Shown piece by piece: positions 42,152 through 59,816 of a stretch of DNA of 64,000 bases. The stretch is taken from NCBI RefSeq assembly GCF_055900595.2, contig NZ_CM148325.1; one strand, written 5' to 3'. The translations under genes and the position numbers were made by a program. The notes beneath the pieces are model-generated. The model worked only from the letters and a program-made list of their open reading frames with translations. It had not been told where the DNA came from and searched no databases. The first letter of the stretch is position 1. Each line of letters starts with the position of its first letter.

Positions 42152-44376
42152 TATCGTTCTGCCGTGAAAAGTGTTTGAATATCATCGCGTAACAGCTGAG
42201 CGTCGGTGTAAATCCAGCCATGAGTCATCACAGTCTGCTGCAATTGCTGCTGCATCAGCCTGACCACCGATTCATTTTGTTGACGCAGAGCCAGACTTTC
42301 GCGTAAACGCGTCTGTAATTCCGTCAAACATGAAGCGAACTCAGCGAAAAAAGTATTCATGCCTGCCGTAACAGATTCATCGACCTGCTCTGCCAGAACT
42401 TTAGCCATTTGTTGGCAATAAAGATCGACTTCTGTGCTTAATGCTCGTTGCAACGCACTGTAATCAACCGTCTCTATCGGGGATTTCTCATTTCCCCGTC
42501 CCCAGTCGGGCTGATTCAACCAGCGCGAAAAAGTCTCACGCACAACGCCTAAACGCGTGCTCTGCTCGTCCATTGCGTCCTGGCGGGAGATGACTTCACT
42601 GAACAACTGGCGAGTGTTGAAGTGGGGAACTGCGCCGTGAAAAACAGGAAAATGAAACCCAGGACGAAACCCTGACTCGCTCAATTCCATTTTGACTTGT
42701 TGCTCAATGGGCCGAATAACATCGGTTAACACCCGGCAAAGAGTGGATTCAAGCTCGGCAAAACGCAGCGTAAAGTCGCGACTGATGGTGTTCTGCGCCG
42801 TCTGTAACAGTGTCTCACAGCAGGTACGAATCTCGCTTAATGACCCCGAATCATCCTGAAACAACGCGGCTAACTGGGCATTCACCGCATCTTGCTGTTG
42901 ACGCAGAAAGAGGTTGGCGGAGGTCAGGGCCAGCTCGATTTCATGTTTAATCTCGCCGCTCACCTGAGCCTGATTGAGTTGAAATAGCTGCAAACTTTCT
43001 TCGATCTGGTGGATATTTTGCCGCAATTGTTCACAAGCGACGTTTAACCCGTGCGCACGAAAATCCAGGTATTCCCGCGCCTGCTGCGCGTAATTCAACA
43101 GTTTATGCGCGGCAGATCGCAGAGCATACAACGAGGCGTTAGCGTAAGCGGCATGAAGCAACGCCTGAATTGGCTGGGCGAACAGCGAATCTTCCCACAA
43201 CTGATCGGCAGCATGACGAATATGTTCGAGGTCCGCCAGGTCGGCATGACGCCAGCGCCTGCCGAGCGCGGCATGGGCAAAATCTTCCACCCAGCGTTGT
43301 TGCTCTGGCGCGGGTAACTTACCGTTGTTGGCTAACTCATTACGCGCCCGATTCGCCAGGTAGCCCCACATCGACGACACTGGAAATATCTGCTGTGGCG
43401 TAATACAGCCTTTCATCAGCGTCCCGGAAATCAGTGCCCGCACCTGGTCGGCGTCGTCACTGTTACGATCCTGTTGATCGAACTTATTGACCAGCACATA
43501 CAGCGGCACCGATTGCCCCACCGCCAAAATCGCCTCACGGACCTCTTCATCGGAGATCGATTTCAGTTGCGTATAATCCAGCACCGCCAGTACCGCCGAG
43601 GCGCGAGCCAGCTGCTGGTTAAGCATTTTTTGCAGATGCGGTTGCCCGGCTTCATTTGGCCCAGGGGTATCCAGTAACGTCAACTGACCGGGATAACTCT
43701 CCAGCCCCGCCAGATGGACAAACTCCACTTCAATCACGGGAATATGCTCAATGGCGGCGTAAGCAGAAAAAGGAAAATCGACGTCCAGCGCCTTCGCCAG
43801 TCGCACCAAATCATTCAAACTTTTCAGACAATGAAAAATAGGCTGGGCACCCAAATAATATTTTTCGAAAGCGACGCCATTTTCGATCCGCTGCATAAGC
43901 GCACGCATATCTTTATCTATTTCCAGCACATCGGTCAGATGCTTAATATCGCAGTCACGCAGGCGCTGGTGTAATTGTTGAATTAAACAGTCGATTGGCG
44001 CGACATGTGAAAAATGCAGTACCGGTTCTTTTTGCCCGGGCGTATGGCGAATAAGCGTCGGCAGCGCAGTCATTGGGCGATTGCGATTAGGCAGAACCTC
44101 CGTACCAACAATAGCATTAATGGTGGTTGATTTCCCTGCTTTCATAGTACCGACAATCGCCAGCACCATTTCCAGTCGGGAAATTTTACGCAACTCATTA
44201 TTCAGCATCGCGTGACGTTCGGCGATATTAGGCTGACTCCAGGGTAAAGCCAGTTGTGGCGCATCGTCTCCGGGTACAGAGAGAGGCATTTTTTCCAGTA
44301 ACTGCAACTGTTGGCGAGAAAGCTGTAGCAGGCGTTCAGCCTCCTGACTTAACTCATACAGGGTCTGTGTGTACAT
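42148..44376 (-). CDS. crfC: Dynamin-like GTPase CrfC (YjdA), clamp-binding sister replication fork colocalisation protein
   Basis: 742-aa ORF with GTPase motif region GTMKAGKSTTINAIVGTEVLP... Confidence 0.85.
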   Translation of the reverse strand: MYTQTLYELSQEAERLLQLSRQQLQLLEKMPLSVPGDDAPQLALPWSQPNIAERHAMLNNELRKISRLEMVLAIVGTMKAGKSTTINAIVGTEVLPNRNRPMTALPTLIRHTPGQKEPVLHFSHVAPIDCLIQQLHQRLRDCDIKHLTDVLEIDKDMRALMQRIENGVAFEKYYLGAQPIFHCLKSLNDLVRLAKALDVDFPFSAYAAIEHIPVIEVEFVHLAGLESYPGQLTLLDTPGPNEAGQPHLQKMLNQQLARASAVLAVLDYTQLKSISDEEVREAILAVGQSVPLYVLVNKFDQQDRNSDDADQVRALISGTLMKGCITPQQIFPVSSMWGYLANRARNELANNGKLPAPEQQRWVEDFAHAALGRRWRHADLADLEHIRHAADQLWEDSLFAQPIQALLHAAYANASLYALRSAAHKLLNYAQQAREYLDFRAHGLNVACEQLRQNIHQIEESLQLFQLNQAQVSGEIKHEIELALTSANLFLRQQQDAVNAQLAALFQDDSGSLSEIRTCCETLLQTAQNTISRDFTLRFAELESTLCRVLTDVIRPIEQQVKMELSESGFRPGFHFPVFHGAVPHFNTRQLFSEVISRQDAMDEQSTRLGVVRETFSRWLNQPDWGRGNEKSPIETVDYSALQRALSTEVDLYCQQMAKVLAEQVDESVTAGMNTFFAEFASCLTELQTRLRESLALRQQNESVVRLMQQQLQQTVMTHGWIYTDAQLLRDDIQTLFTAERY

Positions 44377-44777
44377 AGAAAATTTTTCCTTAAAGCAAAT
44401 TTTATTACTTTTATTTAGCCAGATTGTTTTTGAGTTCTGTTTTCGGCTTTTATAATTACTGCAAGAAATAATTTTATATTTAGAGTGTTGTTTTTTATTA
44501 GAATAAATAACGTCTTCCGATACGTTTAAAACGTCAGAAAGATAAAAATATCATTTGAATTAAAAAAAGAACAAGTAGAGCATTAACCTTATCTTAAATA
44601 ATAAATGGAGGCAAAAAGATTATTTTCTTTTTGCGTTTCCTTTCAAATGAAAACGATCGTCGTCTAAAATCAGCAGTACCCCCGACAAACTCAGGGATTT
44701 TGTGTATAATTGCGGCCTTTTTCGGCAATCTGCCGTTTTTTGGCGCTTTTGCCCTGCTGACTTTTGAGGAAATCCAC

Positions 44778-45113
44778 ATGTCATTACCACACTGCCCAAA
44801 ATGCAACTCCGAATACACCTACGAAGATAACGGCATGTACATCTGCCCGGAATGTGCCTACGAATGGAACGACGCAGAACCTGCACAGGAAAGCGACGAG
44901 CTGATCGTTAAAGATGCTAACGGCAATCTTCTGGCTGATGGCGACAGCGTTACCATCATTAAAGATCTGAAGGTGAAAGGTAGCTCTTCGATGCTGAAGA
45001 TCGGTACCAAAGTGAAAAACATTCGCCTGGTTGAAGGCGACCACAACATCGATTGCAAAATCGACGGTTTTGGTCCGATGAAACTGAAATCTGAGTTTGT
45101 GAAAAAGAACTGA
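44778..45113 (+). CDS. phnA: Zinc-ribbon protein PhnA
   Basis: 111-aa frame from ATG 44778 ([30 protein letters not shown]...). Confidence 0.85.
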
Positions 45114-45139
45114 TTGTATTGCTCAATGTAATATTGGCA

Positions 45140-45300
45140 CATGATCGGTAGGCCGGATAAGGCGCTCGCGCCGCATCCGGCTACGGTGCCGACTGCCTGA
45201 TGCGACGCTCGCGCGTCTTATCAGGCCTACAAATTCTCGCACCATCCGGCAACGGTGCCTAATGCGACGCTTACCGAGTCTTATCAGCCCCCGCTTATCT
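45140..45300. repeat. REP/BIME cluster (about three REP palindromes)
   Basis: GCCGGATAAGGCGCTCGCGCCGCATCCGGC and GCCTGATGCGACGCTCGCGCGTCTTATCAGGCC-type palindromes between phnA and phnB. Confidence 0.7.
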
Positions 45301-45352
45301 GTATAATTTTCGAACTACACTTAACTGGCTTCTCTTAACTGAGGTCACCATC

Positions 45353-45796
45353 ATGCCGTTAAGTCCCTACCTCTCTTTTGCTGGTAACTGTTCCGATGCG
45401 ATTGCCTATTATCAACGCACGTTGGGCGCGGAACTGCTTTATAAAATCAGCTTCGGCGAAATGCCGAAATCAGCGCAGGACAGCGCCGAGAACTGCCCTT
45501 CCGGTATGCAATTTCCCGATACCGCTATCGCCCATGCTAACGTGCGTATTGCCGGAAGCGATATCATGATGAGCGATGCCATACCGTCAGGAAAAGCCAG
45601 CTACTCCGGTTTTACACTGGTACTCGATTCGCAACAGGTCGAAGAAGGAAAACGCTGGTTTGATAACCTTGCTGCTAACGGAAAAATCGAAATGGCCTGG
45701 CAGGAAACTTTCTGGGCGCATGGCTTCGGCAAAGTCACCGATAAATTTGGCGTACCGTGGATGATTAATGTCGTCAAACAACAACCAACGCACTAA
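45353..45796 (+). CDS. phnB: PhnB (glyoxalase-fold protein)
   Basis: 147-aa ORF MPLSPYLSFAGNCSDAIAYYQRTLGAELLYKISFGEMPK... Confidence 0.85.
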   Translation: MPLSPYLSFAGNCSDAIAYYQRTLGAELLYKISFGEMPKSAQDSAENCPSGMQFPDTAIAHANVRIAGSDIMMSDAIPSGKASYSGFTLVLDSQQVEEGKRWFDNLAANGKIEMAWQETFWAHGFGKVTDKFGVPWMINVVKQQPTH

Positions 45797-45851
45797 CCCG
45801 CCGGGAGGCCCGCCCTCCCGCACTGTCATCGAATTCCCGTTAACTCTTCAT

Positions 45852-45873
45852 CTGTTAGTCACTTTTAGTTAAC
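45852..45873 (+). promoter_or_regulatory. Putative Pho box upstream of phnC
   Basis: CTGTTAGTCACTTTTAGTTAAC resembles PhoB-box half-sites (CTGTCAT-like repeats); a second CTGTCAT at about 45823. Confidence 0.4.
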
Positions 45874-45928
45874 AAAATCGTCACGATAATCCGCCACGAT
45901 GGAGCCACTTTTTTAGGGAGGCTGCATC

Positions 45929-46717
45929 ATGCAAACGATTATCCGTGTCGAGAAGCTCGCCAAAACCTTCAATCAGCATCAGGCGCTGCATGCGGTTGAT
46001 CTGAACATTCATCACGGTGAAATGGTGGCTCTGCTTGGGCCGTCCGGTTCCGGCAAATCCACCCTTTTACGTCATTTAAGCGGTTTGATTACCGGCGATA
46101 AATCTGCCGGTAGCCATATCGAGCTGCTGGGCCGCACAGTCCAGCGCGAAGGCCGCCTGGCCCGCGATATCCGCAAAAGCCGCGCCAACACCGGCTACAT
46201 CTTCCAACAATTCAACCTGGTGAATCGCCTGAGCGTACTGGAGAACGTGCTGATTGGCGCGCTCGGCAGCACGCCATTCTGGCGCACCTGTTTTAGCTAC
46301 TTCACCCGCGAGCAGAAACAGCGCGCGTTACAGGCGCTGACCCGCGTTGGCATGGTGCACTTTGCCCATCAGCGCGTTTCCACCCTCTCCGGCGGACAGC
46401 AGCAGCGTGTGGCGATTGCCCGTGCGCTGATGCAGCAGGCGAAGGTGATTCTGGCCGATGAACCGATCGCCTCGCTGGACCCGGAATCGGCCCGCATCGT
46501 GATGGATACCCTGCGCGACATCAACCAGAACGACGGCATCACCGTGGTGGTGACGCTGCATCAGGTGGATTACGCCCTGCGCTACTGCGAACGCATCGTC
46601 GCCCTGCGCCAGGGGCACGTCTTCTACGACGGCAGCAGCCAACAGTTTGATAACGAACGTTTTGACCATCTCTACCGCAGCATTAACCGCGTCGAAGAGA
46701 ACGCGAAAGCTGCCTGA
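45929..46717 (+). CDS. phnC: Phosphonate ABC transporter ATP-binding protein
   Basis: 262-aa ORF with Walker [10 protein letters not shown] and ABC signature LSGGQQQR. Confidence 0.9.
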
Positions 46718-46741
46718 CATCCCCATCATTGAGGAAAACGA

Positions 46742-47758
46742 ATGAACGCTAAGATAATTGCCTCGCTGGCCTTCACCAGCATGTTCAGCCTCAGCACCCT
46801 GTTAAGCCCGGCGCACGCCGAAGAGCAGGAAAAGGCGCTGAATTTCGGCATTATTTCAACGGAATCACAGCAAAACCTGAAACCGCAATGGACGCCGTTC
46901 TTACAGGATATGGAGAAGAAGCTGGGCGTAAAGGTCAACGCCTTCTTTGCCCCGGACTACGCGGGCATTATCCAGGGGATGCGCTTCAACAAAGTGGACA
47001 TCGCCTGGTACGGCAATCTGTCGGCGATGGAAGCGGTGGATCGCGCCAACGGTCAGGTCTTCGCCCAGACGGTCGCGGCGGATGGATCGCCGGGTTACTG
47101 GAGCGTGTTGATCGTCAACAAAGACAGTCCGATCAACAACCTGAACGATCTGCTGGCAAAGCGTAAAGATCTCACCTTCGGCAATGGCGATCCTAACTCC
47201 ACCTCTGGCTTCCTCGTCCCCGGCTACTACGTCTTCGCCAAAAACAATATCTCCGCCAGCGACTTCAAGCGCACCGTCAACGCCGGGCATGAAACCAACG
47301 CGCTGGCCGTCGCCAACAAGCAGGTGGATGTGGCGACCAACAACACCGAGAACCTCGACAAGCTGAAAACCTCCGCACCGGAGAAGCTCAAAGAACTGAA
47401 GGTGATCTGGAAATCGCCGCTGATCCCAGGCGATCCGATCGTCTGGCGCAAAAATCTTTCCGAAACCACCAAAGACAAGATCTACGACTTCTTTATGAAC
47501 TACGGCAAAACGCCGGAAGAGAAAGCGGTGCTGGAGCGCCTGGGCTGGGCCCCGTTCCGCGCCTCCAGCGACCTGCAACTGGTGCCGATTCGCCAGCTCG
47601 CGCTGTTTAAAGAGATGCAGGGCGTGAAAGGCAATAAAGGGCTGAATGAGCAGGACAAGCTGGCAAAAACCAGCGCCATTCAGGCGCAACTGGATGACCT
47701 GGACCGCCTGAACAACGCGTTAAGCGCGATGAGTTCGGTGAGTAAAGCGGTGCAGTAA
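46742..47758 (+). CDS. phnD: Phosphonate ABC transporter periplasmic binding protein
   Basis: 338-aa ORF with N-terminal signal peptide. Confidence 0.9.
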   Translation: MNAKIIASLAFTSMFSLSTLLSPAHAEEQEKALNFGIISTESQQNLKPQWTPFLQDMEKKLGVKVNAFFAPDYAGIIQGMRFNKVDIAWYGNLSAMEAVDRANGQVFAQTVAADGSPGYWSVLIVNKDSPINNLNDLLAKRKDLTFGNGDPNSTSGFLVPGYYVFAKNNISASDFKRTVNAGHETNALAVANKQVDVATNNTENLDKLKTSAPEKLKELKVIWKSPLIPGDPIVWRKNLSETTKDKIYDFFMNYGKTPEEKAVLERLGWAPFRASSDLQLVPIRQLALFKEMQGVKGNKGLNEQDKLAKTSAIQAQLDDLDRLNNALSAMSSVSKAVQ

Positions 47759-47764
47759 TGTGCT

Positions 47765-47875
47765 CGATCGGTCCCCTCTCCCTTGAGGGAGAGGGTTAGG
47801 GTGAGGAAGAAATGCGCACGCTGGTGCCCTCACCCCGGCCCTCTCCCACAGGGAGAGGGAGAAAACATTAAACGG
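47765..47875. repeat. GC-rich palindromic intergenic repeat pair (boxC-like)
   Basis: Two inverted copies built on CCCTCTCCC...GGGAGAGGG and GGGTGAGGG/CCCTCACCCC cores between phnD and phnE; same element recurs at 53110-53240. Confidence 0.6.
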
Positions 47876-47883
47876 AGCCAAAC

Positions 47884-48663
47884 ATGCAAACCATCACCAT
47901 TGCCCCACCCAAGCGCAGCTGGTTCTCGATCTTCAGCTGGGCCATTGTTCTCGCCGTACTGGTCGTCTCGTGGCAGGGCGCGGAAATGGCCCCGCTCACG
48001 CTGATTAAAGACGGCGGCAACATGGCGACGTTCGCCGCCGACTTCTTCCCGCCCGATTTCAGCCAGTGGCAGGATTACCTCACCGAAATGGCCGTCACGC
48101 TGCAAATCGCCGTCTGGGGCACCGCGCTGGCAGTCGTTCTCTCCATCCCCTTCGGCCTGATGAGCGCCGAAAACCTGGTGCCGTGGTGGGTTTACCAGCC
48201 CGTTCGCCGCCTGATGGACGCCTGCCGCGCCATTAACGAGATGGTCTTCGCCATGCTGTTCGTGGTCGCCGTCGGTCTCGGTCCGTTCGCTGGCGTACTG
48301 GCGCTGTTTATCCACACCACCGGCGTGCTCTCCAAACTGCTTTCCGAAGCGGTAGAAGCAATTGAACCCGGCCCGGTGGAAGGCATTCGCGCCACCGGTG
48401 CCAACAAGCTCGAAGAGATCCTCTATGGCGTGCTGCCGCAGGTGATGCCGCTGCTAATCTCCTACTCCCTCTATCGCTTCGAATCCAACGTCCGCTCGGC
48501 CACCGTTGTTGGCATGGTCGGCGCTGGCGGGATCGGCGTCACGCTGTGGGAAGCGATTCGCGGTTTCCAGTTCCAGCAAACCTGTGCCCTGATGGTGCTG
48601 ATTATCGTCACGGTCAGCCTGCTGGATTTCCTCTCTCAACGGTTGCGTAAGCACTTTATCTGA
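47884..48663 (+). CDS. phnE: Phosphonate ABC transporter permease (intact)
   Basis: 259-aa uninterrupted membrane ORF. Confidence 0.85.
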
Positions 48664-48683
48664 TAAGCGAGGCATTAATATCT

Positions 48684-49409
48684 ATGCACTTGTCTACACA
48701 TCCGACCAGCTACCCAACACGCTATCAGGAGATAGCCGCAAAACTTGAGCAGGAGCTTCGTCAACACTACCGCTGCGGCGACTATCTTCCCGCCGAGCAG
48801 CAACTGGCAGCGCGCTTTGAGGTGAATCGCCACACCCTGCGCCGTGCCATCGACCAACTGGTGGAAAAAGGCTGGGTACAGCGCCGTCAGGGCGTCGGCG
48901 TGCTGGTGCTGATGCGCCCGTTCGATTACCCGCTCAACGCCCAGGCGCGTTTTAGCCAGAACCTGCTGGATCAGGGTAGCCATCCCACCAGCGAAAAACT
49001 GCTGTCCGTGCTGCGCCCGGCCTCCGGTCACGTCGCTGACGCGCTGGGGATAACCGAGGGCGAGAACGTTATCCACCTGCGCACCCTGCGCCGGGTCAAC
49101 GGCGTCGCACTCTGTTTAATCGACCACTACTTTGCGGACCTCACTCTCTGGCCGACGCTGCAACGCTTCGACAGCGGCTCGCTGCACGATTTTTTGCACG
49201 AGCAAACGGGGATTGCGCTGCGCCGCAGCCAGACGCGGATCAGCGCCCGCCGCGCCCAGGCCAAAGAGTGCCAGCGTCTTGAAATCCCGAATATGTCGCC
49301 GCTGCTGTGCGTGCGCACCCTTAACCACCGTGACGGTGAAAGCAGCCCGGCGGAGTACTCCGTCAGCCTGACGCGCGCCGACATGATTGAATTCACTATG
49401 GAGCACTGA
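48684..49409 (+). CDS. phnF: GntR-family repressor of the phn operon
   Basis: 241-aa ORF with N-terminal HTH region. Confidence 0.85.
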   Translation: MHLSTHPTSYPTRYQEIAAKLEQELRQHYRCGDYLPAEQQLAARFEVNRHTLRRAIDQLVEKGWVQRRQGVGVLVLMRPFDYPLNAQARFSQNLLDQGSHPTSEKLLSVLRPASGHVADALGITEGENVIHLRTLRRVNGVALCLIDHYFADLTLWPTLQRFDSGSLHDFLHEQTGIALRRSQTRISARRAQAKECQRLEIPNMSPLLCVRTLNHRDGESSPAEYSVSLTRADMIEFTMEH

Positions 49410-49862
49410 ATGCACGCAGATACCGCGACCCGCCAGCACTGGATGTCCGTGCTGGCGCACAGCCAACCGGCTGAACTGGCTAACCGCCTTAAAGCGCTAA
49501 ACATCACCGCCGACTATGACATTATCCGCGCCGCCGAAACCGGCCTGGTACAGATTCAGGCGCGGATGGGTGGCACCGGCGAACGCTTTTTTGCCGGCGA
49601 CGCCACGCTCACCCGCGCCGCCATACGCCTGACTGACGGCACGCTCGGCTACAGCTGGGTGCTGGGGCGCGACAAACAGCACGCCGAACGCTGCGCGCTG
49701 ATTGACGCGCTGATGCAGCAATCTCGCCACTTTCAAAACTTATCAGAAACCCTTATTGCCCCGCTGGACGCTGACCGTATGGCACGCATTGCCGCACGCC
49801 AGGCCGAAGTGAACGCCAGTCGGGTCGACTTCTTTACGATGGTTCGCGGAGACAACGCATGA
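49410..49862 (+). CDS. phnG: C-P lyase core complex subunit PhnG
   Basis: 150-aa ORF; operon order. Confidence 0.85.
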
Positions 49863-50443
49863 CCCTGGAAACCGCTTTTATGCTTCCCGTGCAGGATGCC
49901 CAGCACAGTTTTCGTCGCCTGTTAAAGGCCATGAGCGAGCCGGGCGTGATTGTCGCCCTACATCAACTCAAACGCGGCTGGCAGCCGCTGAATATTGCCT
50001 CTACCAGCGTATTGCTGACGCTGGCTGATAACGACACGCCGGTGTGGCTTTCCGCGCCATTAAGTAACGATATCGTCAGCCAGAGCCTGCGTTTTCATAC
50101 CAACGCCCCGCTGGTCAATCAGCCGGAACAGGCGACCTTCGCAGTGACGGATGAGGCGATTGCCAGCGAGCAGCTCAACGCCCTTTCCACCGGCACCGCC
50201 GTTGCGCCGGAAGCCGGTGCGACGTTGATTTTACAGGTCACCAGCCTGAGCGGCGGACGCATGCTGCGCCTCACCGGCGCGGGTATTGCCGAAGAACGGA
50301 TGATCGCCCCGCAACTGCCGGAGTGCATTCTGCACGAACTCACCGAGCGCCCGCACCCGTTCCCGCTCGGCATCGACCTGATCCTGACCTGCGGCGAGCG
50401 CCTGCTGGCTATTCCGCGAACCACTCATGTGGAGGTGTGCTGA
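49859..50443 (+). CDS. phnH: C-P lyase core complex subunit PhnH
   Basis: 194-aa ORF; translationally coupled to neighbours. Confidence 0.85.
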
Positions 50444-51507
50444 TGTACGTTGCCGTGAAAGGGGGCGAGAAGGCGATCGACGCCGCCCACGCCCTGCAAG
50501 AGAGCCGACGCCGGGGCGATACCGATTTGCCTGAACTGAGCGTCGCCCAGATTGAACAGCAGCTTAATCTCGCGGTGGATCGCGTGATGACCGAAGGCGG
50601 CATTGCCGACCGCGAACTGGCCGCACTGGCGCTGAAACAGGCCAGTGGCGATAACGTTGAAGCAATTTTCCTGCTGCGCGCCTACCGCACGACGCTGGCA
50701 AAACTGGCGGTGAGCGAACCGCTCGACACCACCGAGATGCGTCTCGAACGCCGTATCTCCGCCGTTTATAAAGACATTCCTGGCGGCCAGTTGCTTGGCC
50801 CGACCTACGACTACACCCATCGCCTGCTCGATTTCACCCTGCTGGCGAATGGCGAAGCGCCGACGCTGACCACCGCCGACAGCGAGCAAGCCCCATCACC
50901 GCACGTTTTCAGCCTGCTGGCGCGTCAGGGGCTGGCGAAGTTTGAAGAGGATAGCGGCACACAGCCGGATGACATCACCCGCACGCCGCCGGTTTACCCC
51001 TGCTCACGCTCCTCCCGCCTGCAGCAGCTCATGCGCGGAGACGAAGGCTATTTGCTGGCGCTGGCCTACTCCACCCAGCGTGGTTACGGACGCAATCACC
51101 CGTTCGCAGGCGAAATCCGCAGTGGCTATATCGACGTGTCTATTGTGCCGGAAGAGCTGGGATTTGCGGTGAACATCGGCGAACTGCTGATGACCGAGTG
51201 TGAAATGGTCAACGGTTTTATCGACCCGCCGGATGAGCCGCCGCACTTCACGCGCGGCTACGGGCTGGTGTTCGGCATGAGCGAGCGCAAAGCGATGGCA
51301 ATGGCGCTGGTTGACCGTGCGTTGCAGGCTCCGGAGTACGGCGAGCACGCGACAGGCCCGGCGCAGGATGAAGAGTTCGTGCTGGCGCATGCCGACAACG
51401 TCGAAGCCGCAGGCTTTGTCTCGCACCTCAAACTCCCGCACTACGTCGATTTCCAGGCCGAGCTGGAGCTACTCAAACGTCTGCAACAGGAGCAGAACCA
51501 TGGCTAA
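50443..51507 (+). CDS. phnI: C-P lyase core complex subunit PhnI
   Basis: Frame from ATG 50443 ([27 protein letters not shown]...), 354 aa. Confidence 0.85.
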   Translation: MYVAVKGGEKAIDAAHALQESRRRGDTDLPELSVAQIEQQLNLAVDRVMTEGGIADRELAALALKQASGDNVEAIFLLRAYRTTLAKLAVSEPLDTTEMRLERRISAVYKDIPGGQLLGPTYDYTHRLLDFTLLANGEAPTLTTADSEQAPSPHVFSLLARQGLAKFEEDSGTQPDDITRTPPVYPCSRSSRLQQLMRGDEGYLLALAYSTQRGYGRNHPFAGEIRSGYIDVSIVPEELGFAVNIGELLMTECEMVNGFIDPPDEPPHFTRGYGLVFGMSERKAMAMALVDRALQAPEYGEHATGPAQDEEFVLAHADNVEAAGFVSHLKLPHYVDFQAELELLKRLQQEQNHG

Positions 51508-52345
51508 TCTGAGCGGCTACAACTTTGCCTACCTCGACGAGCAGACCAAACGCATGATCCGCCGCGCCATCTTAAAAGCGGTGGCGATCCCCGGCTATCA
51601 GGTGCCGTTTGGCGGGCGCGAGATGCCGATGCCATACGGCTGGGGAACCGGCGGCATACAGCTTACCGCCAGCGTGATTGGCGAAAGCGACGTGTTGAAG
51701 GTGATTGACCAGGGCGCGGATGACACCACCAACGCCGTATCAATTCGCAACTTTTTCAAGCGCGTGACCGGGGTAAACACCACTGAACGTACGGACGATG
51801 CGACGCTTATCCAGACGCGCCACCGCATCCCCGAAACGCCGCTGACCGAAGATCAGATCATTATCTTCCAGGTGCCGATCCCGGAACCGCTGCGCTTTAT
51901 CGAGCCGCGCGAAACGGAGACCCGCACCATGCACGCGCTGGAGGAGTACGGCGTGATGCAGGTGAAACTATATGAAGATATCGCCCGCTTCGGTCATATC
52001 GCCACCACTTATGCCTATCCGGTGAAGGTGAACGGGCGCTACGTCATGGACCCATCGCCGATCCCGAAATTCGATAACCCGAAAATGGACATGATGCCCG
52101 CCCTGCAACTGTTTGGCGCGGGGCGCGAGAAGCGTATTTATGCGGTGCCGCCGTTTACCCGCGTGGAAAGCCTCGATTTTGACGATCACCCGTTCACCGT
52201 TCAGCAGTGGGATGAACCCTGCGCGATTTGCGGATCAACCCACAGCTATCTCGATGAAGTGGTGCTGGATGACGCCGGAAACCGCATGTTTGTCTGCTCC
52301 GATACCGATTATTGCCGCCAACAGAGCGAGGCGAAAAGCCAATGA
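51500..52345 (+). CDS. phnJ: C-P lyase (radical SAM-like) PhnJ
   Basis: Frame from ATG 51500 (MANLSGYNFAYLDEQTKRMIRRAILKAVAIPGYQVPFGGREMPMPYGWGTGG...), 281 aa, C-terminal Cys cluster CAICGS...C. Confidence 0.85.
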   Translation: MANLSGYNFAYLDEQTKRMIRRAILKAVAIPGYQVPFGGREMPMPYGWGTGGIQLTASVIGESDVLKVIDQGADDTTNAVSIRNFFKRVTGVNTTERTDDATLIQTRHRIPETPLTEDQIIIFQVPIPEPLRFIEPRETETRTMHALEEYGVMQVKLYEDIARFGHIATTYAYPVKVNGRYVMDPSPIPKFDNPKMDMMPALQLFGAGREKRIYAVPPFTRVESLDFDDHPFTVQQWDEPCAICGSTHSYLDEVVLDDAGNRMFVCSDTDYCRQQSEAKSQ

Positions 52346-53100
52346 ATCAACCGTTACTTTCGGTCAATAACCTGACCCACCTTTACGCGCCGGGCAAAGG
52401 CTTCAGCGATGTCTCTTTTGATTTATGGCCGGGGGAAGTGCTGGGCATTGTCGGGGAATCCGGTTCCGGGAAGACCACGCTGCTGAAATCAATCTCCGCC
52501 CGTCTGACGCCGCAACAGGGGGAGATTCACTATGAAAACCGTTCCCTCTATGGCATGAGCGAGGCCGACCGCCGTCGCCTGCTGCGCACCGAATGGGGCG
52601 TGGTGCATCAGCATCCGCTCGACGGCCTGCGCCGCCAGGTCTCGGCAGGCGGCAATATCGGCGAACGGCTGATGGCGACCGGGGCGCGTCATTACGGCGA
52701 CATTCGCGCCACCGCGCAGAAGTGGCTGGAAGAGGTGGAGATTCCCGCCAACCGTATCGACGACCTGCCGACCACTTTTTCCGGCGGTATGCAGCAGCGT
52801 TTGCAGATTGCCCGCAACCTGGTGACGCATCCGAAGCTGGTGTTTATGGATGAACCGACCGGCGGGCTGGATGTATCGGTACAGGCGCGCCTGCTCGACC
52901 TGCTGCGCGGCCTGGTGGTGGAACTGAACCTGGCGGTGGTGATTGTCACCCATGATTTAGGCGTCGCCCGCCTGCTGGCGGACCGTTTGCTGGTGATGAA
53001 GCAGGGGCAGGTGGTGGAGAGTGGGTTAACCGACCGCGTGCTCGACGACCCGCATCACCCGTATACCCAGTTGCTGGTGTCATCGGTTTTGCAGAATTGA
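52342..53100 (+). CDS. phnK: C-P lyase system ATP-binding protein PhnK
   Basis: Frame from ATG 52342 (MNQPLLSVNNLTHLYAPGKGF...), Walker A GESGSGKTT. Confidence 0.85.
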   Translation: MNQPLLSVNNLTHLYAPGKGFSDVSFDLWPGEVLGIVGESGSGKTTLLKSISARLTPQQGEIHYENRSLYGMSEADRRRLLRTEWGVVHQHPLDGLRRQVSAGGNIGERLMATGARHYGDIRATAQKWLEEVEIPANRIDDLPTTFSGGMQQRLQIARNLVTHPKLVFMDEPTGGLDVSVQARLLDLLRGLVVELNLAVVIVTHDLGVARLLADRLLVMKQGQVVESGLTDRVLDDPHHPYTQLLVSSVLQN

Positions 53101-53109
53101 ATGCAACAC

Positions 53110-53240
53110 CGTGCGCGCTGATCCCCTCACCCCGGCCCTCTCCCGGAGGGAGAGGGAGAAAACCGGCGCAATATTCAACACCGCGCACAATCGGTCCCCT
53201 CGCCCCTTCGGGGAGAGGGTTAGGGTGAGGGGCAATGCGC
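53110..53240. repeat. GC-rich palindromic intergenic repeat pair (boxC-like), second site
   Basis: CCCTCACCCCGGCCCTCTCCCGGAGGGAGAGGGAGAA and GGTCCCCTCGCCCCTTCGGGGAGAGGGTTAGGGTGAGGG between phnK and phnL. Confidence 0.6.
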
Positions 53241-53276
53241 GCACCGCTCCCCAATATGCGAACCACGAGGCGAAAA

Positions 53277-53957
53277 ATGATTAACGTACAAAACGTCAGT
53301 AAAACCTTCATCCTGCACCAGCAAAACGGCGTGCGCCTGCCCGTCTTACAACGCGCCTCGCTCACCGTCAACGCGGGCGAATGCGTGGTGCTCCACGGTC
53401 ACTCCGGCAGCGGCAAATCGACCCTGCTACGTTCGCTGTACGCCAACTATCTGCCCGACGAAGGGCAAATCCAGATTAAACACGGTGACGAATGGATAGA
53501 CCTGGTCACCGCCCCAGCGCGCAAAGTGGTGGAAATCCGCAAAACCACTGTCGGCTGGGTAAGTCAGTTTCTGCGCGTCATCCCGCGTATTTCGGCACTG
53601 GAAGTGGTGATGCAGCCGCTGCTCGATACCGGCGTTCCGCGTGAAGCCTGCGCCGCTAAAGCCGCCCGATTACTGACGCGCCTGAACGTGCCTGAACGCC
53701 TGTGGCACCTGGCACCATCGACCTTCTCCGGCGGCGAACAGCAGCGCGTCAACATCGCCCGTGGCTTTATCGTCGACTATCCGATTCTGCTGCTGGATGA
53801 ACCCACCGCCTCGCTGGACGCCAAAAACAGCGCCGCCGTAGTGGAACTGATCTGCGAAGCCAAAGCCCGCGGCGCGGCCATCGTCGGTATCTTCCATGAC
53901 GAAGCCGTACGCAATGACGTCGCCGACCGCCTGCACCCAATGGGAGTCTCTTCATGA
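53277..53957 (+). CDS. phnL: C-P lyase system ATP-binding protein PhnL
   Basis: Frame from ATG 53277 ([24 protein letters not shown]...), Walker [10 protein letters not shown]. Confidence 0.85.
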
Positions 53958-55090
53958 TTATCAATAACGTCAAACTGGTGCTGGAAAATGAAGTGGTGCA
54001 CGGTTCACTGGAAGTACAGGATGGCGAAATTCGCGCCTTTGCCGAAAGCCAGAGCCGCCTGCCAGAGGCGATGGACGGCGAAGGCGGCTGGCTGCTGCCG
54101 GGGCTGATTGAGCTGCATACCGACAACCTCGATAAATTCTTCACTCCGCGCCCAAAAGTGGACTGGCCTGCCCACTCGGCGATGAGCAGCCACGACGCGC
54201 TGATGGTGGCGAGCGGCATCACCACCGTACTGGATGCCGTGGCGATTGGCGACGTGCGCGACGGCGGCGATCGGCTGGAGAATCTGGAGAAGATGATCAA
54301 CGCCATCGAAGAGACGCAGAAACGCGGCGTCAACCGCGCCGAGCACCGTCTGCACCTGCGCTGTGAACTGCCACATCACACCACGCTGCCGCTGTTTGAA
54401 AAACTGGTGCAGCGCGAGCCGGTAACGCTGGTGTCGCTAATGGACCACTCGCCGGGCCAGCGCCAGTTCGCCAATCGCGAGAAGTATCGCGAATATTATC
54501 AGGGCAAATACTCGCTCACCGATGCGCAGATGCAGCTGTACGAAGAGGAACAGCTGGCGCTTGCCGCACGCTGGTCGCAGCCGAATCGCGAAACCATCGC
54601 CGCAATGTGCCGCGCGCGACAAATTGCCCTCGCCAGCCACGATGACGCCACGCACGCGCACGTTGCCGAATCCCACCAGCTTGGCAGCGTAATCGCCGAA
54701 TTTCCCACCACGTTCGAAGCGGCGGAAGCTTCGCGCAAGCATGGCATGAATGTATTGATGGGCGCGCCGAATATTGTGCGCGGCGGTTCGCACTCCGGCA
54801 ACGTGGCGGCCAGTGAACTGGCACAGCTTGGTCTGCTGGATATCCTCTCTTCCGACTACTACCCCGCCAGCCTGCTCGATGCGGCATTTCGCGTCGCCGA
54901 TGACGAGAGCAACCGCTTTACGCTGCCGCAGGCGGTGAAGCTGGTGACTAAAAATCCGGCGCAGGCGCTGAATCTTCAGGATCGCGGGGTGATTGGCGAG
55001 GGCAAACGCGCCGACCTGGTGCTGGCGCATCGCAAGGGTAATCACATTCATATCGACCACGTCTGGCGTCAGGGGAAAAGGGTGTTTTGA
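53954..55090 (+). CDS. phnM: PhnM (amidohydrolase-family, alpha-D-ribose 1-methylphosphonate 5-triphosphate diphosphatase)
   Basis: 378-aa ORF; operon order. Confidence 0.85.
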
Positions 55091-55647
55091 TGATGGGAAA
55101 ACTGGTTTGGTTGATGGGGCCGTCCGGCTCCGGGAAAGATAGCCTGCTGGCGGAGCTCCGCCTGCGGGAACAAGCTCAGTTACTGGTGGCGCATCGCTAC
55201 ATCACGCGCGATGCCAGCGCCGGAAGCGAAAATCATATCGCCCTGAGTGAGCAGGAGTTTTTTGCCCGCGCGGGGCAGCAACTCTTCGCATTAAGCTGGC
55301 ATGCTAATAGCTACTATTACGGTGCCGGGCTGGAAATTGACCTCTGGCTGCACGCCGGATTCGACGTGGTGGTCAACGGTTCACGCGCCCATCTGCCGCA
55401 GGCGCGGGCGCGCTATCAATCGGCGCTGCTGCCCATCTGTTTACAGGTTTCGCCAGAGATCCTGCGCCAGCGCCTGGAAAACCGTGGACGGGAAAACGCG
55501 ACAGAAATTAACGCCCGACTCGCACGCGCCGCCCGCTATACTCCTCAGGATTGCCATACGCTCAACAATGACGGCAGCCTGCGCCAGTCGGTCGACACGC
55601 TGCTGACGCTGATCCATCAGAAGGAGAAACACCATGCCTGCTTGTGA
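55090..55647 (+). CDS. phnN: Ribose 1,5-bisphosphate phosphokinase PhnN
   Basis: Frame from ATG 55090 ([20 protein letters not shown]...), P-loop present. Confidence 0.85.
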
Positions 55648-56068
55648 GCTTCGCCCGGCCACGCAGTACGATACCGACGCGGTTTACGCGCTGATTTGCG
55701 AGCTAAAACAGGCGGAGTTTGACCACCACGCGTTTCGCGTGGGGTTTAACGCCAATCTGCGCGACCCGAACATGCGCTACCATCTGGCGCTGCTGGATGG
55801 CGAAGTTGTCGGCATGATCGGCCTGCATTTGCAGTTTCATCTGCATCATGTCAACTGGATCGGCGAAATTCAGGAACTGGTGGTGATGCCGCAGGCACGT
55901 GGTTTGAACGTGGGTAGCAAATTGCTGGCATGGGCGGAAAAAGAAGCTCGCCAGGCCGGGGCCGAAATGACCGAGCTTTCCACCAACGTCAAGCGCCACG
56001 ACGCGCACCGTTTCTATCTGCGCGAAGGCTACGAGCAGAGCCACTTCCGCTTCACCAAGGCGCTGTAA
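55634..56068 (+). CDS. phnO: Aminoalkylphosphonate N-acetyltransferase PhnO
   Basis: 144-aa GNAT-like ORF. Confidence 0.85.
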
Positions 56069-56069
56069 C

Positions 56070-56828
56070 ATGAGCCTGACCCTCACACTTACTGGCACTG
56101 GCGGCGCACAGGGTGTTCCCGCATGGGGCTGTGAGTGCGCGGCCTGCGCCAGAGCGCGGCGCTCACCGCAGTATCGCCGCCAGCCATGCAGCGGCGTCGT
56201 GAAGTTTAACGACGCGATCACCCTGATCGACGCCGGGCTGCACGGTCTCGCCGATCGCTGGTCGCCCGGATCGTTCCAGCAGTTTTTGCTGACACACTAC
56301 CATATGGATCACGTGCAGGGGCTGTTTCCGCTGCGCTGGGGCGTGGGCGATTCGATCCCGGTCTACGGCCCGCCGGATGAACAGGGCTGCGACGATCTGT
56401 TTAAACATCCGGGCCTGCTTGATTTCAGCCACACGGTGGAGCCATTTGTGATGTTTGATTTGCAGGGATTACAGGTCACGCCGCTGCCGCTCAACCATTC
56501 GAAACTCACTTTCGGCTATCTACTGGAAACGGCACATAGCCGGGTGGCGTGGCTGTCTGACACCGCAGGCCTGCCGGAAAAAACGGTGAAATTTTTACGC
56601 AATAATCAGCCGCAGGTGATGGTGATTGATTGCAGTCACCCACCGCGCGCGAATTCGCCACGCAATCACTGTGATTTAAACACCGTGCTGGCGCTGAATG
56701 AAGTTATCCGCTCGCCGCGCGTGGTTCTGACACATATCAGCCATCAGCTTGATGTGTGGCTGATGGAGAACGTACTGCCGTCAGGGTTTGAGGCGGGGTT
56801 TGATGGGATGGAGATTGGGGTGGAGTGA
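56070..56828 (+). CDS. phnP: Phosphodiesterase PhnP (metallo-beta-lactamase fold)
   Basis: 252-aa ORF with HxHxDH motif ([10 protein letters not shown]). Confidence 0.85.
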
Positions 56829-56862
56829 TGGGTGAGGGGCGATGCCTGCTCTAAACTCAACA

Positions 56863-57192
56863 TCACCGCCCATACTCATCTTCCATTCTCCGCTCTTCAT
56901 CTTCTAGCTGCCGACGCTCCTGATCCAGCTGGCGCTGGCGATCGTCCAGCTGCCTGCGGCGATCTTCAAACTGGCGGCGGCGATCGTCATATTGTCTGCG
57001 CCGATCGTCGTTCACTTCACGCTGCCAGCCGTCGTCGCGCGAATCTTCATAGTCTCGCCCACGGTCAGGGTTATAAGCATCGTTAATCGCCTGCTGAATA
57101 TTACCAATGGTGTCGTCGATAATATCGGCCTGGGCCGGAACGGTGGACAGCGTGAGCAGGGTGAATAAAAGAAATAGCGGAAAACGTTTCAT
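56863..57192 (-). CDS. yjdP: Small secreted Arg/Asp-rich protein YjdP
   Basis: 109-aa ORF with signal peptide and RRQ/DDR repeats. Confidence 0.75.
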   Translation of the reverse strand: MKRFPLFLLFTLLTLSTVPAQADIIDDTIGNIQQAINDAYNPDRGRDYEDSRDDGWQREVNDDRRRQYDDRRRQFEDRRRQLDDRQRQLDQERRQLEDEERRMEDEYGR

Positions 57193-57260
57193 TAGCCAAC
57201 CTCAAAAAGAAACTCTATCCACATTAGTCATTACTCATCCATGCAAGTAGTGGATGAATC

Positions 57261-57578
57261 TCAATTTTTCCGCTGCTCTATTGCCGTAATCGCCTCCACA
57301 CGTTGTTGATGACGACCGCCTTCGTACTGCGCGCCCAGCCACGCATCCACAATCATTTTTGCCAGTTCGAGGCCAACCACTCGTGAACCAAAAGCCAGTG
57401 CAACTTCACTGGCGTAATGCGGATAATCAGTGCGCTCTGACGACCTGGTTTCTTTATCAATCCCCTCACTCATTGACCATGAATAAAAGGCTGGCACAGC
57501 AACGCAGAATCCTGCGGTGCCAGCGACATGACCGCCCATTGCTCCGGTACGTTTTTTAATAAGAAACACCGGTTGCAT
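57261..57578 (-). pseudogene. rpiB: rpiB remnant (ribose-5-phosphate isomerase B with internal deletion)
   Basis: 105-aa ORF contains SSERTDYPHYAS and C-terminal FGSRVVGLELAKMIVDAWLGAQYEGGRHQQRVEAITAIEQR matching RpiB, but lacks about 50 central residues. Confidence 0.7.
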
Positions 57579-57830
57579 TGATTAATTGTGCTCAGTATTT
57601 GCCGAAGTACAATATATATAATAAATATATAAAACACCTCATATTATTTACAGAGATAATAAATTCGCATACTTTTCCCTCTTCAGCACAAATGCCTAAT
57701 AAAATGGCTCGTTCCGCTCACACTTCCACTTATTAAAATCGCAATTTCCCAATTATGATAACGCCAGCTTTAAATGACGTATTTTGCATGGATTACATAT
57801 TTACGACACAAATGATAAATGGAGATTTAT

Positions 57831-59816
57831 ATGAATAACTCTCGGTTATTCCGTTTGAGCAGGATTGTTATTGCGTTAACTGCCGCCAGCGGCATGATGG
57901 TAAATACCGCTCACGCAACAGATGAAGCGAAAGCCGCCACTCAATATACCCAACAGGTTAATCAGAATTACGCCAAATCATTACCGTTTAGCGATCGTCA
58001 GGATTTTGACGATGCCCAGCGCGGATTTATCGCCCCGCTGCTGGATGAAGGTATTCTGCGCGATGCGAATGGCAAAGTTTACTACCGCGCGGATGATTAC
58101 AAATTTGATATTAATGCCGCTGCGCCGGAAACCGTAAACCCCAGCCTGTGGCGTCAGTCGCAGATCAACGGCATTTCTGGCCTGTTCAAAGTCACCGATA
58201 AAATGTATCAGGTGCGCGGCCAGGATATCTCTAACATTACATTCGTTGAGGGCGAGAAAGGCATTATTGTTATCGACCCACTGGTGACACCGCCTGCCGC
58301 AAAAGCCGCACTTGACCTTTACTTCCAGCATCGTCCGCAAAAACCGATTGTTGCTGTTATTTACACCCACAGCCACGCCGACCATTATGGCGGTGTGAAA
58401 GGCATTATCTCTGAAGCGGATGTTAAATCTGGCAAAGTGCAGGTGATCGCTCCGGCAGGCTTTATGGACGAAGCCATCAGCGAAAACGTGCTGGCGGGTA
58501 ACATCATGAGCCGCCGTGCGCTCTACTCTTACGGTCTGTTACTGCCGCACAACGCGCAAGGCAACGTGGGCAACGGCCTGGGCGTGACGCTGGCAACGGG
58601 CGATCCGAGCATTATTGCGCCAACCAAAACGATTGTCAGAACTGGCGAGAAGATGGTTATCGACGGTCTGGAGTTTGACTTTCTGATGACTCCGGGTAGC
58701 GAAGCGCCAGCCGAAATGCACTTCTATATTCCGGCCCTGAAAGCCCTGTGTACCGCCGAAAACGCCACGCATACCCTGCACAACTTCTACACCCTGCGCG
58801 GCGCGAAAACCCGCGATACCAGCAAGTGGACAGCGTATCTGAACGAAACGCTGGATATGTGGGGTAACGACGCGGAAGTACTGTTTATGCCGCACACCTG
58901 GCCGGTCTGGGGCAATAAGCATATCAATGATTATATTGGTAAATATCGCGATACTATCAAATACATTCACGACCAGCCCCTGCACCTGGCGAACCAGGGT
59001 TACACCATGAATGAAATCGGCGACATGATTAAGCTGCCACCTGCGCTTGCCAATAACTGGGCCAGCCGCGGCTATTACGGTTCTGTTAGCCACAACGCCC
59101 GTGCAGTGTATAACTTCTATCTCGGCTATTATGACGGCAATCCAGCTAACCTACATCCGTACGGTCAGGTGGAGATGGGCAAACGTTACGTGAAAGCGCT
59201 GGGCGGTTCCGCCCGTGTCATCAACCTGGCGCAAGAAGCGAACAAGCAAGGGGATTACCGCTGGTCAGCAGAGTTGCTGAAACAATTGATTGCCGCCAAT
59301 CCGGGTGACCAGGTGGCGAAGAATCTGCAAGCAAATAACTTTGAACAGTTGGGTTATCAGGCCGAGTCCGCCACCTGGCGCGGTTTCTACCTGACCGGCG
59401 CAAAAGAGCTGCGCGAAGGGGTGCATAAGTTCAGCCACGGCACCACCGGTTCTCCGGACACCCTTCGCGGGATGTCGGTCGAAATGCTGTTCGACTTTAT
59501 GGCCGTTCGCCTCGATAGCGCGAAAGCCGCAGGTAAGAATATCAGCCTGAACTTCAATATGAGCAACGGCGATAACCTCAACCTGACGCTGAACGATAGC
59601 GTGCTTAACTACCGTAAAACGCTGCAACCTGAAGCCAACGCCTCTTTCTACATCAGCCGTGAAGATCTTCACGCCGTGCTGACCGGACAAGCCAAAATAG
59701 CGGATCTGGTAAAAGTGAAGAAAGCCAAAATTATTGGCAATGGCGCGAAACTGGAAGAAATTATTGCCTGTCTGGATAATTTCGATTTGTGGGTGAATAT
59801 CGTAACCCCAAATTAA
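57831..59816 (+). CDS. yjcS: Putative alkyl/aryl-sulfatase YjcS (metallo-beta-lactamase fold)
   Basis: 661-aa frame from ATG 57831 ([29 protein letters not shown]...) with signal peptide and [10 protein letters not shown] motif. Confidence 0.85.

Follow-up and report, generated by a model that had tools for sequence, protein, structure and literature searches.

The phnE gene in the 64,000-nucleotide stretch of Escherichia coli DNA analyzed here (the window; NCBI RefSeq assembly GCF_055900595.2, contig NZ_CM148325.1) is an uninterrupted reading frame with two copies of an 8-bp repeat unit, and all 14 phn genes are present, uninterrupted and in the canonical order phnCDEFGHIJKLMNOP. Based on the combined interpretation of reading frames, protein family profiles, substitution patterns, the upstream PhoB-binding region and the distribution of the repeat alleles among complete genomes, we consider it very likely that the window derives from an E. 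coli strain with an ordinary, functional-type phnE allele in a complete phn operon that would be inducible through the Pho system.

The analyzed region is the chromosomal phn locus of E. coli. The flank at positions 20000-44000 is closest to a few E. coli genomes, among them Z0117EC0005 and E400634 (99.5% identity); identity to nearly all other complete E. coli genomes is 95-99%. Given the 99.5% matches to named E. coli genomes, an origin of the window outside this species was considered and discarded. The neighboring genes are those of K-12, with pmrB, proP, crfC, yjdM, and yjdN upstream and yjdP downstream. The operon comprises the following genes, with bit scores given against the respective cutoff and dN/dS given relative to K-12.

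45929-46717, + strand: phnC, ABC transporter ATPase, 262 aa (NF007438, 606 bits vs. 365; dN/dS 0.08)
46742-47758, + strand: phnD, periplasmic phosphonate-binding protein, 338 aa (TIGR03431, 376.5 bits vs. 261)
47884-48663, + strand: phnE, ABC permease subunit, 259 aa (TIGR01097, PF00528)
48684-49409, + strand: phnF, GntR-type regulator, 241 aa (NF007486, 517.7 bits vs. 363)
49410-52345, + strand: C-P lyase core complex genes phnG-phnJ, all of K-12 length (TIGR03293 and TIGR03292 above cutoff, PhnI and PhnJ by Pfam; dN/dS 0.01-0.23)
49410-49862, + strand: phnG
49859-50443, + strand: phnH
50443-51507, + strand: phnI
51500-52345, + strand: phnJ
52342-53100, + strand: phnK, 252 aa (TIGR02323, 411 bits vs. 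303)
53277-53957, + strand: phnL (above its NCBIfam equivalog cutoff, as are phnM to phnP)
53954-55090, + strand: phnM
55090-55647, + strand: phnN
55634-56068, + strand: phnO
56070-56828, + strand: phnP (dN/dS 0.01-0.14 across phnL-phnP, 53277-56828)

The open reading frame list and its translation place phnE at 47884-48663 on the + strand, with an ATG start, 780 bp, 259 codons for amino acids and no internal stop; as in K-12, a GGAG ribosome binding site precedes the ATG by 8 nt. The GC content of the frame is 61%, compared with 51% for the window. In profile searches, the protein scored 311.3 bits with TIGR01097, the equivalog model for PhnE (cutoff 216.7), aligned over profile positions 7-251 of 252, and residues 88-258 matched the ABC importer permease domain PF00528 (BPD_transp_1) with 91.8 bits. 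Within this domain, an EAA-type loop, the cytoplasmic coupling loop, can be read by eye at approximately residues 166-185. The segment 47700-48800 matched the phnD-phnE-phnF annotation in 5,422 of the 5,426 complete E. coli genomes searched, and window phnE has 95-99% identity to annotated phnE in more than 5,000 of them. The end-to-end profile match, the permease domain and the annotation across E. coli together show that the frame is not a chance open reading frame. An identical 259-aa E. coli PhnE is present at NCBI on 215 contigs; V21I is the only difference from PhnE of Z0117EC0005, and only three of the 259 residues (L16I, L17F, V21I) differ from a frame-repaired K-12 PhnE. With this profile score, its permease domain and the ATPase and binding protein genes phnC and phnD directly upstream, both above their equivalog cutoffs, the protein would qualify as a PhnE equivalog. 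It is predicted to form the membrane subunit of the PhnCDE ABC importer and, together with PhnC and PhnD, to transport phosphonate (and phosphate). The 90%-identity protein cluster that holds window PhnE also contains several 241-aa proteins labeled PhnF, which probably reflects a quirk of database clustering or labeling and not biology.

The difference between this gene and the cryptic K-12 copy is confined to one short tract. We aligned phnE of the window with that of the K-12-like strain OV2 and of the nearest relative, Z0117EC0005. The OV2 copy (788 bp, annotated as 'frameshifted') is identical to that of MG1655, which is likewise 788 bp, annotated as 'frameshifted' and listed as pseudogene b4583 in NC_000913.3. 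A single indel, an 8-bp unit at positions 406-413 of the reading frame, separates the window allele from the K-12-type allele. The K-12 tract reads CGTTC GCTGGCGT GCTGGCGT GCTGGCGC TG and has three units, whereas the window tract (48289-48304, + strand; codons 136-141) reads CGTTC GCTGGCGT ACTGGCGC TG and has two units in frame. The unit length of this tandem repeat within the reading frame is not a multiple of three. The third unit shifts the K-12 frame, which diverges after residue 140 and ends at a stop at codon 190, so that K-12 PhnE lacks both the coupling loop and the second, C-terminal half of its permease domain. The window frame, with two units only, runs to the normal stop. The two copies in the window differ by one mismatch, a G-to-A change at 48297 that is synonymous (GTG to GTA, Val138) and interrupts the direct repeat. 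Consequently, the longest run of period-8 self-match is 6 nt in the window, compared with 7 nt in a K-12 revertant and 15 nt in K-12. A consensus scan flagged 48288-48303 as terminator-like, which we treat as a chance match to the consensus.

The first-pass annotation of this stretch had described phnE as an intact 259-aa permease, in contrast to a K-12 gene made cryptic by a short insertion, and had named alignment to K-12 phnE as the check. Both statements are borne out. The alignment revealed no internal frameshift in the window, and the insertion in K-12 is the third copy of the 8-bp direct repeat, in agreement with the published account of cryptic K-12 phnE (PMC6469041). Yet an intact phnE does not distinguish this genome, as it is the usual condition in E. 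coli. We surveyed the tract in 5,426 complete E. coli genomes with 82- and 90-bp megablast queries and with exact 32-mers. The 90-bp query, carrying the three-unit tract of K-12, matched 994 records at 99-100% identity, and in almost all remaining records the alignment to it spanned 82 bp and contained an 8-bp gap. The 82-bp query from the window returned 994 records in the 80-90% identity band, which corresponds to the three-unit state, and 3,844 records at 90% identity or above, which corresponds to the two-unit state; 394 of the latter were exact matches. By exact 32-mer, the perfect G-type two-unit tract (GCTGGCGTGCTGGCGC) occurred in approximately 2,260 genomes and the A-type two-unit tract of the window (GCTGGCGTACTGGCGC) in 408. 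These frequencies are approximate, as the megablast queries left about 560 genomes untyped, some 1,700 differ by other variants next to the tract and the genomes are phylogenetically non-independent. The intact two-unit phnE is thus the majority state of E. coli (at least 3,800 genomes vs. approximately 1,000 with three units), whereas the three-unit OFF allele makes up roughly one-fifth of typed genomes in a collection that is enriched for K-12 derivatives, which account for many of its carriers.

Copy number of the G-type tract varies in nature beyond these two states. E. coli SW071611 (NZ_CM129855.1) carries a four-unit allele, three copies of GCTGGCGT followed by GCTGGCGC, that is annotated as frameshifted, so that G-type tracts occur with two, three and, in at least one genome, four units. 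A synthetic query for a three-unit A-type tract, in contrast, had no exact match in any of the 5,426 genomes; its best matches were K-12-type alleles at 95.6-96.7% identity. Expansion of the A-type tract was hence seen in none of the 408 genomes that carry it.

These patterns bear on an alternative view of the window allele, namely that phnE is intact because a slippage-driven phase switch currently stands at ON. As a contingency locus, it would be ON only transiently and would turn OFF at appreciable frequency through gain of an 8-bp unit. The 8-bp slippage switch in phnE is itself established in the literature, where it dates back to 1991. K-12 reverts readily: revertants lose GCTGGCGT at positions 407-414 of the reading frame and regain PhnCDE transport (PMC6469041), and this deletion of a repeat unit arises via slippage between the direct repeats (PMC4759930). 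Furthermore, PMC6469041 cites Iqbal et al. 2004, a paper that by its title treats the switch as reversible phase variation, and literature cited there reports for K-12 that the locus turns ON and OFF reversibly and at a raised frequency. The window tract still has the two units on which slippage could act, and natural genomes with two, three, and four units exist. However, a two-unit tract offers only a short period-8 self-match, which the A at 48297 reduces further, and the three-unit A-type allele is missing from the surveyed genomes despite the many that carry its two-unit form. The 994 records identical to K-12 over 90 bp also fit descent from few lineages plus laboratory stocks better than frequent independent switching. 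Weighing both sides, we regard a transient ON state of the window allele as unlikely. A related proposal is that the synonymous A at 48297 itself stabilizes phnE in the ON state and that this lineage has lost the switch that yields K-12-type OFF alleles. We put this forward only tentatively, as one possible reading of the allele counts; shared ancestry could also explain why A-type tracts such as that of the window are found unexpanded.

The preferred reading, an ordinary functional-type allele in a complete operon, also depends on the remaining genes and on their promoter. The 13 genes other than phnE (45929-56828) have the lengths and starts of their K-12 counterparts and end in a terminal stop, and alignment to K-12 revealed no internal stop in any of the 14 genes phnC to phnP. 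Eleven of the 13 proteins encoded besides PhnE exceeded their NCBIfam equivalog cutoffs. PhnI and PhnJ had no match in the NCBIfam search at E ≤ 1e-30 and were recognized by the Pfam families PF05861 (515 bits) and PF06007 (502 bits), respectively. Nucleotide identity of the operon to K-12 is 92-97%, and dN/dS relative to K-12, estimated according to Nei and Gojobori, ranges from 0.01 to 0.23 for every phn gene, which places the operon under purifying selection and not in decay. The earlier claim that phnC to phnP is intact was therefore upheld, with gene lengths that match K-12 except for the 8-bp difference of phnE, no stops, matches to curated models and signs of purifying selection throughout.

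Upstream of phnC, the alignment to the K-12-like sequence and to Z0117EC0005 shows that half-site cores, putative -10 box and ribosome binding site are kept.

45852-45885, + strand: PhoB-binding region 5' of phnC, with half-sites AGTCAC, GTTAAC, and CGTCAC at 11-bp spacing
45895-45900, + strand: putative -10 hexamer CACGAT, 10 nt past the last PhoB half-site

We infer the register of the half-sites, and CACGAT is a candidate -10 box by its spacing, which resembles that in other Pho promoters; the hexamer is the same in the window, K-12 and Z0117EC0005. Three substitutions separate the window from K-12 in the region upstream of phnC, and all of them fall into the 18-bp PhoB motif instance at 45868-45885 (positions 1, 7, and 18), which changes from ATTAACCAAATCGTCACA in K-12 to GTTAACAAAATCGTCACG in the window. 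In published work, the phnC instance of this motif is ATTAACCAAATCGTCACA, with an RNA value of 32,470 in the wild type and 13 in a phoB deletion strain (PMC10294691), and the K-12 phnC promoter had the lowest PhoB affinity among the Pho promoters tested (PMC4447250). Given three substitutions in the motif of a promoter that is already of lowest affinity in K-12, an altered strength of induction is possible. A consensus promoter scan of the window did not detect the phnC promoter, which is expected for a PhoB-dependent promoter without a -35 box.

One could argue from this promoter that the reading frames are intact and the pathway is nevertheless impaired or silent, either through a minority promoter allele or through amino acid substitutions in the catabolic proteins. 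Of 5,398 records that matched the promoter region, only 26 indeed have the exact 103-bp allele of the window, and PhnN and PhnP differ from their K-12 counterparts by 12 and 14 amino acids, respectively. Judged from the sites reported in PMC10294691, however, motif positions 1, 7, and 18 appear to lie outside the GTCAC-type half-site cores and to carry little information, and Z0117EC0005 has the same three substitutions. Moreover, dN/dS values well below one for every gene and scores far above the equivalog cutoffs are unlike what a decaying operon would display. A silent or impaired pathway behind intact genes hence seems quite improbable. A collapse of a true three-unit tract during sequencing or assembly, for which nothing specific speaks beyond the general possibility of miscounting repeat units, is next to negligible for a tract of 16-24 bp, far below any read length, given that the same two-unit A-type 32-mer recurs in 408 independent complete genomes and the exact protein on 215 contigs.

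In a strain with an ordinary phnE allele and a complete operon, PhoB would switch on the phnC promoter under phosphate limitation, and all 14 genes would be expressed. PhnCDE would then import phosphonates, and PhnGHIJKLM together with PhnNOP would cleave the C-P bond. Unlike K-12, such a strain could use phosphonates without a prior slippage reversion, and the gene content predicts expression, transport and growth on phosphonates in the strain from which the window derives. The initial annotation had spoken of constitutive competence for phosphonate use under Pho induction. 'Constitutive' is the wrong word, as the operon would be Pho-inducible; the remainder of the statement agrees with the kept PhoB promoter region and with a competence that would need no prior reversion.

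Sequence divergence across the locus is uneven. The best match for 44000-58000, which holds the phn operon, was 98.0% among the 5,426 genomes, compared with 99.5% for the flank. A 500-bp bin in phnN (55124-55623) has only 88% identity to the nearest relative, from which phnN differs with a dS of 0.39, and dS of the operon relative to K-12 is 0.10-0.30. This divergence looks like mosaic recombination, possibly with a divergent Escherichia lineage as the source. Two segments that flank the operon, the yjdM-yjdN spacer at 45114-45352 (86% identity to K-12 per 500-bp bin) and 56829-57400 around yjdP, 3' of phnP (71-75%), are nearly identical to Z0117EC0005; they look like further intergenic replacements or indel polymorphisms.

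At phnD-phnE and at phnK-phnL, the two internal intergenic gaps of the operon, palindromic elements stand where K-12 has another repeat type.

47772-47860, + strand: GC-rich, nested palindromic repeat that fills the phnD-phnE gap, where the alignment places an unrelated REP-type sequence in K-12
53101-53276, + strand: 176-bp phnK-phnL intergenic region with two additional copies of this palindromic family in opposite arrangement

The element between phnD and phnE is arranged as CCCTCTCCC-TTGA-GGGAGAGGG, followed by GGGTGAGG...CCTCACCC and then by CCCTCTCCC-ACA-GGGAGAGGG. RNA folding of 47756-47886 predicted one long hairpin (-71.2 kcal/mol, z = -7.6) that does not constitute an intrinsic terminator, as no T-run follows it. 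Some of this element also has matches at other places in E. coli genomes, and the palindrome appears to resemble the 'Box C' repeat family of E. coli. The phnK-phnL gap of K-12 is 110 bp long and REP-type, whereas Z0117EC0005 has the same insert as the window. We presume the K-12 intergenic sequence to be REP-type from its sequence; the feature table of NC_000913.3 contains no REP entries. A pattern search of the window for the phnD-phnE palindrome retrieved one copy only and missed those between phnK and phnL, which were found by alignment, because their loop length differs. The phnD-phnE element could stabilize the mRNA or decouple phnD from phnE, and its long hairpin could make the ratio of phnCD to phnE expression differ from that in K-12.

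The genotype of the window strain for phosphonate utilization is the standard one of E. coli, and the cryptic phnE of K-12 is a peculiarity of that strain and not the norm of the species. A metabolic model or annotation derived from K-12 would wrongly score phosphonate uptake as absent from the window genome. The population counts, i.e., a three-unit state in about one-fifth of genomes, a four-unit allele and an A-type tract without expansion, are a modest by-product that provides a basis for a phylogeny-aware study.

Among PDB chains, a sequence search returned no PhnE; MetI, the permease of the methionine ABC importer (PDB 3dhw, 6cvl), is the solved structure nearest in sequence, has the same BPD_transp_1 domain and aligns with query residues 125-254. 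MetI is a distant relative (E = 6e-6, 29 bits) and belongs to a system for another substrate. K-12 MG1655 b4583 shares locus, neighbors, start codon, ribosome binding site and stop codon with window phnE, and differs in having three units, 788 bp and a stop at codon 190, as opposed to two units and a full-length product. The wider K-12 background is set apart by its other repeat elements at phnD-phnE and phnK-phnL and by the 92-97% nucleotide identity of the operon. The closest counterparts are E. coli B and phnE+ revertants of K-12, which have a functional phn operon according to Makino et al. 1991, as cited in PMC6469041. They share with the window the order of the 14 genes, the two-unit repeat and a 259-aa PhnE, and differ in that the second unit of the window starts with A instead of G, a synonymous exchange of GTA for GTG. 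The window thus carries the functional allele known from E. coli B and from K-12 revertants, and its exact protein product is already catalogued.
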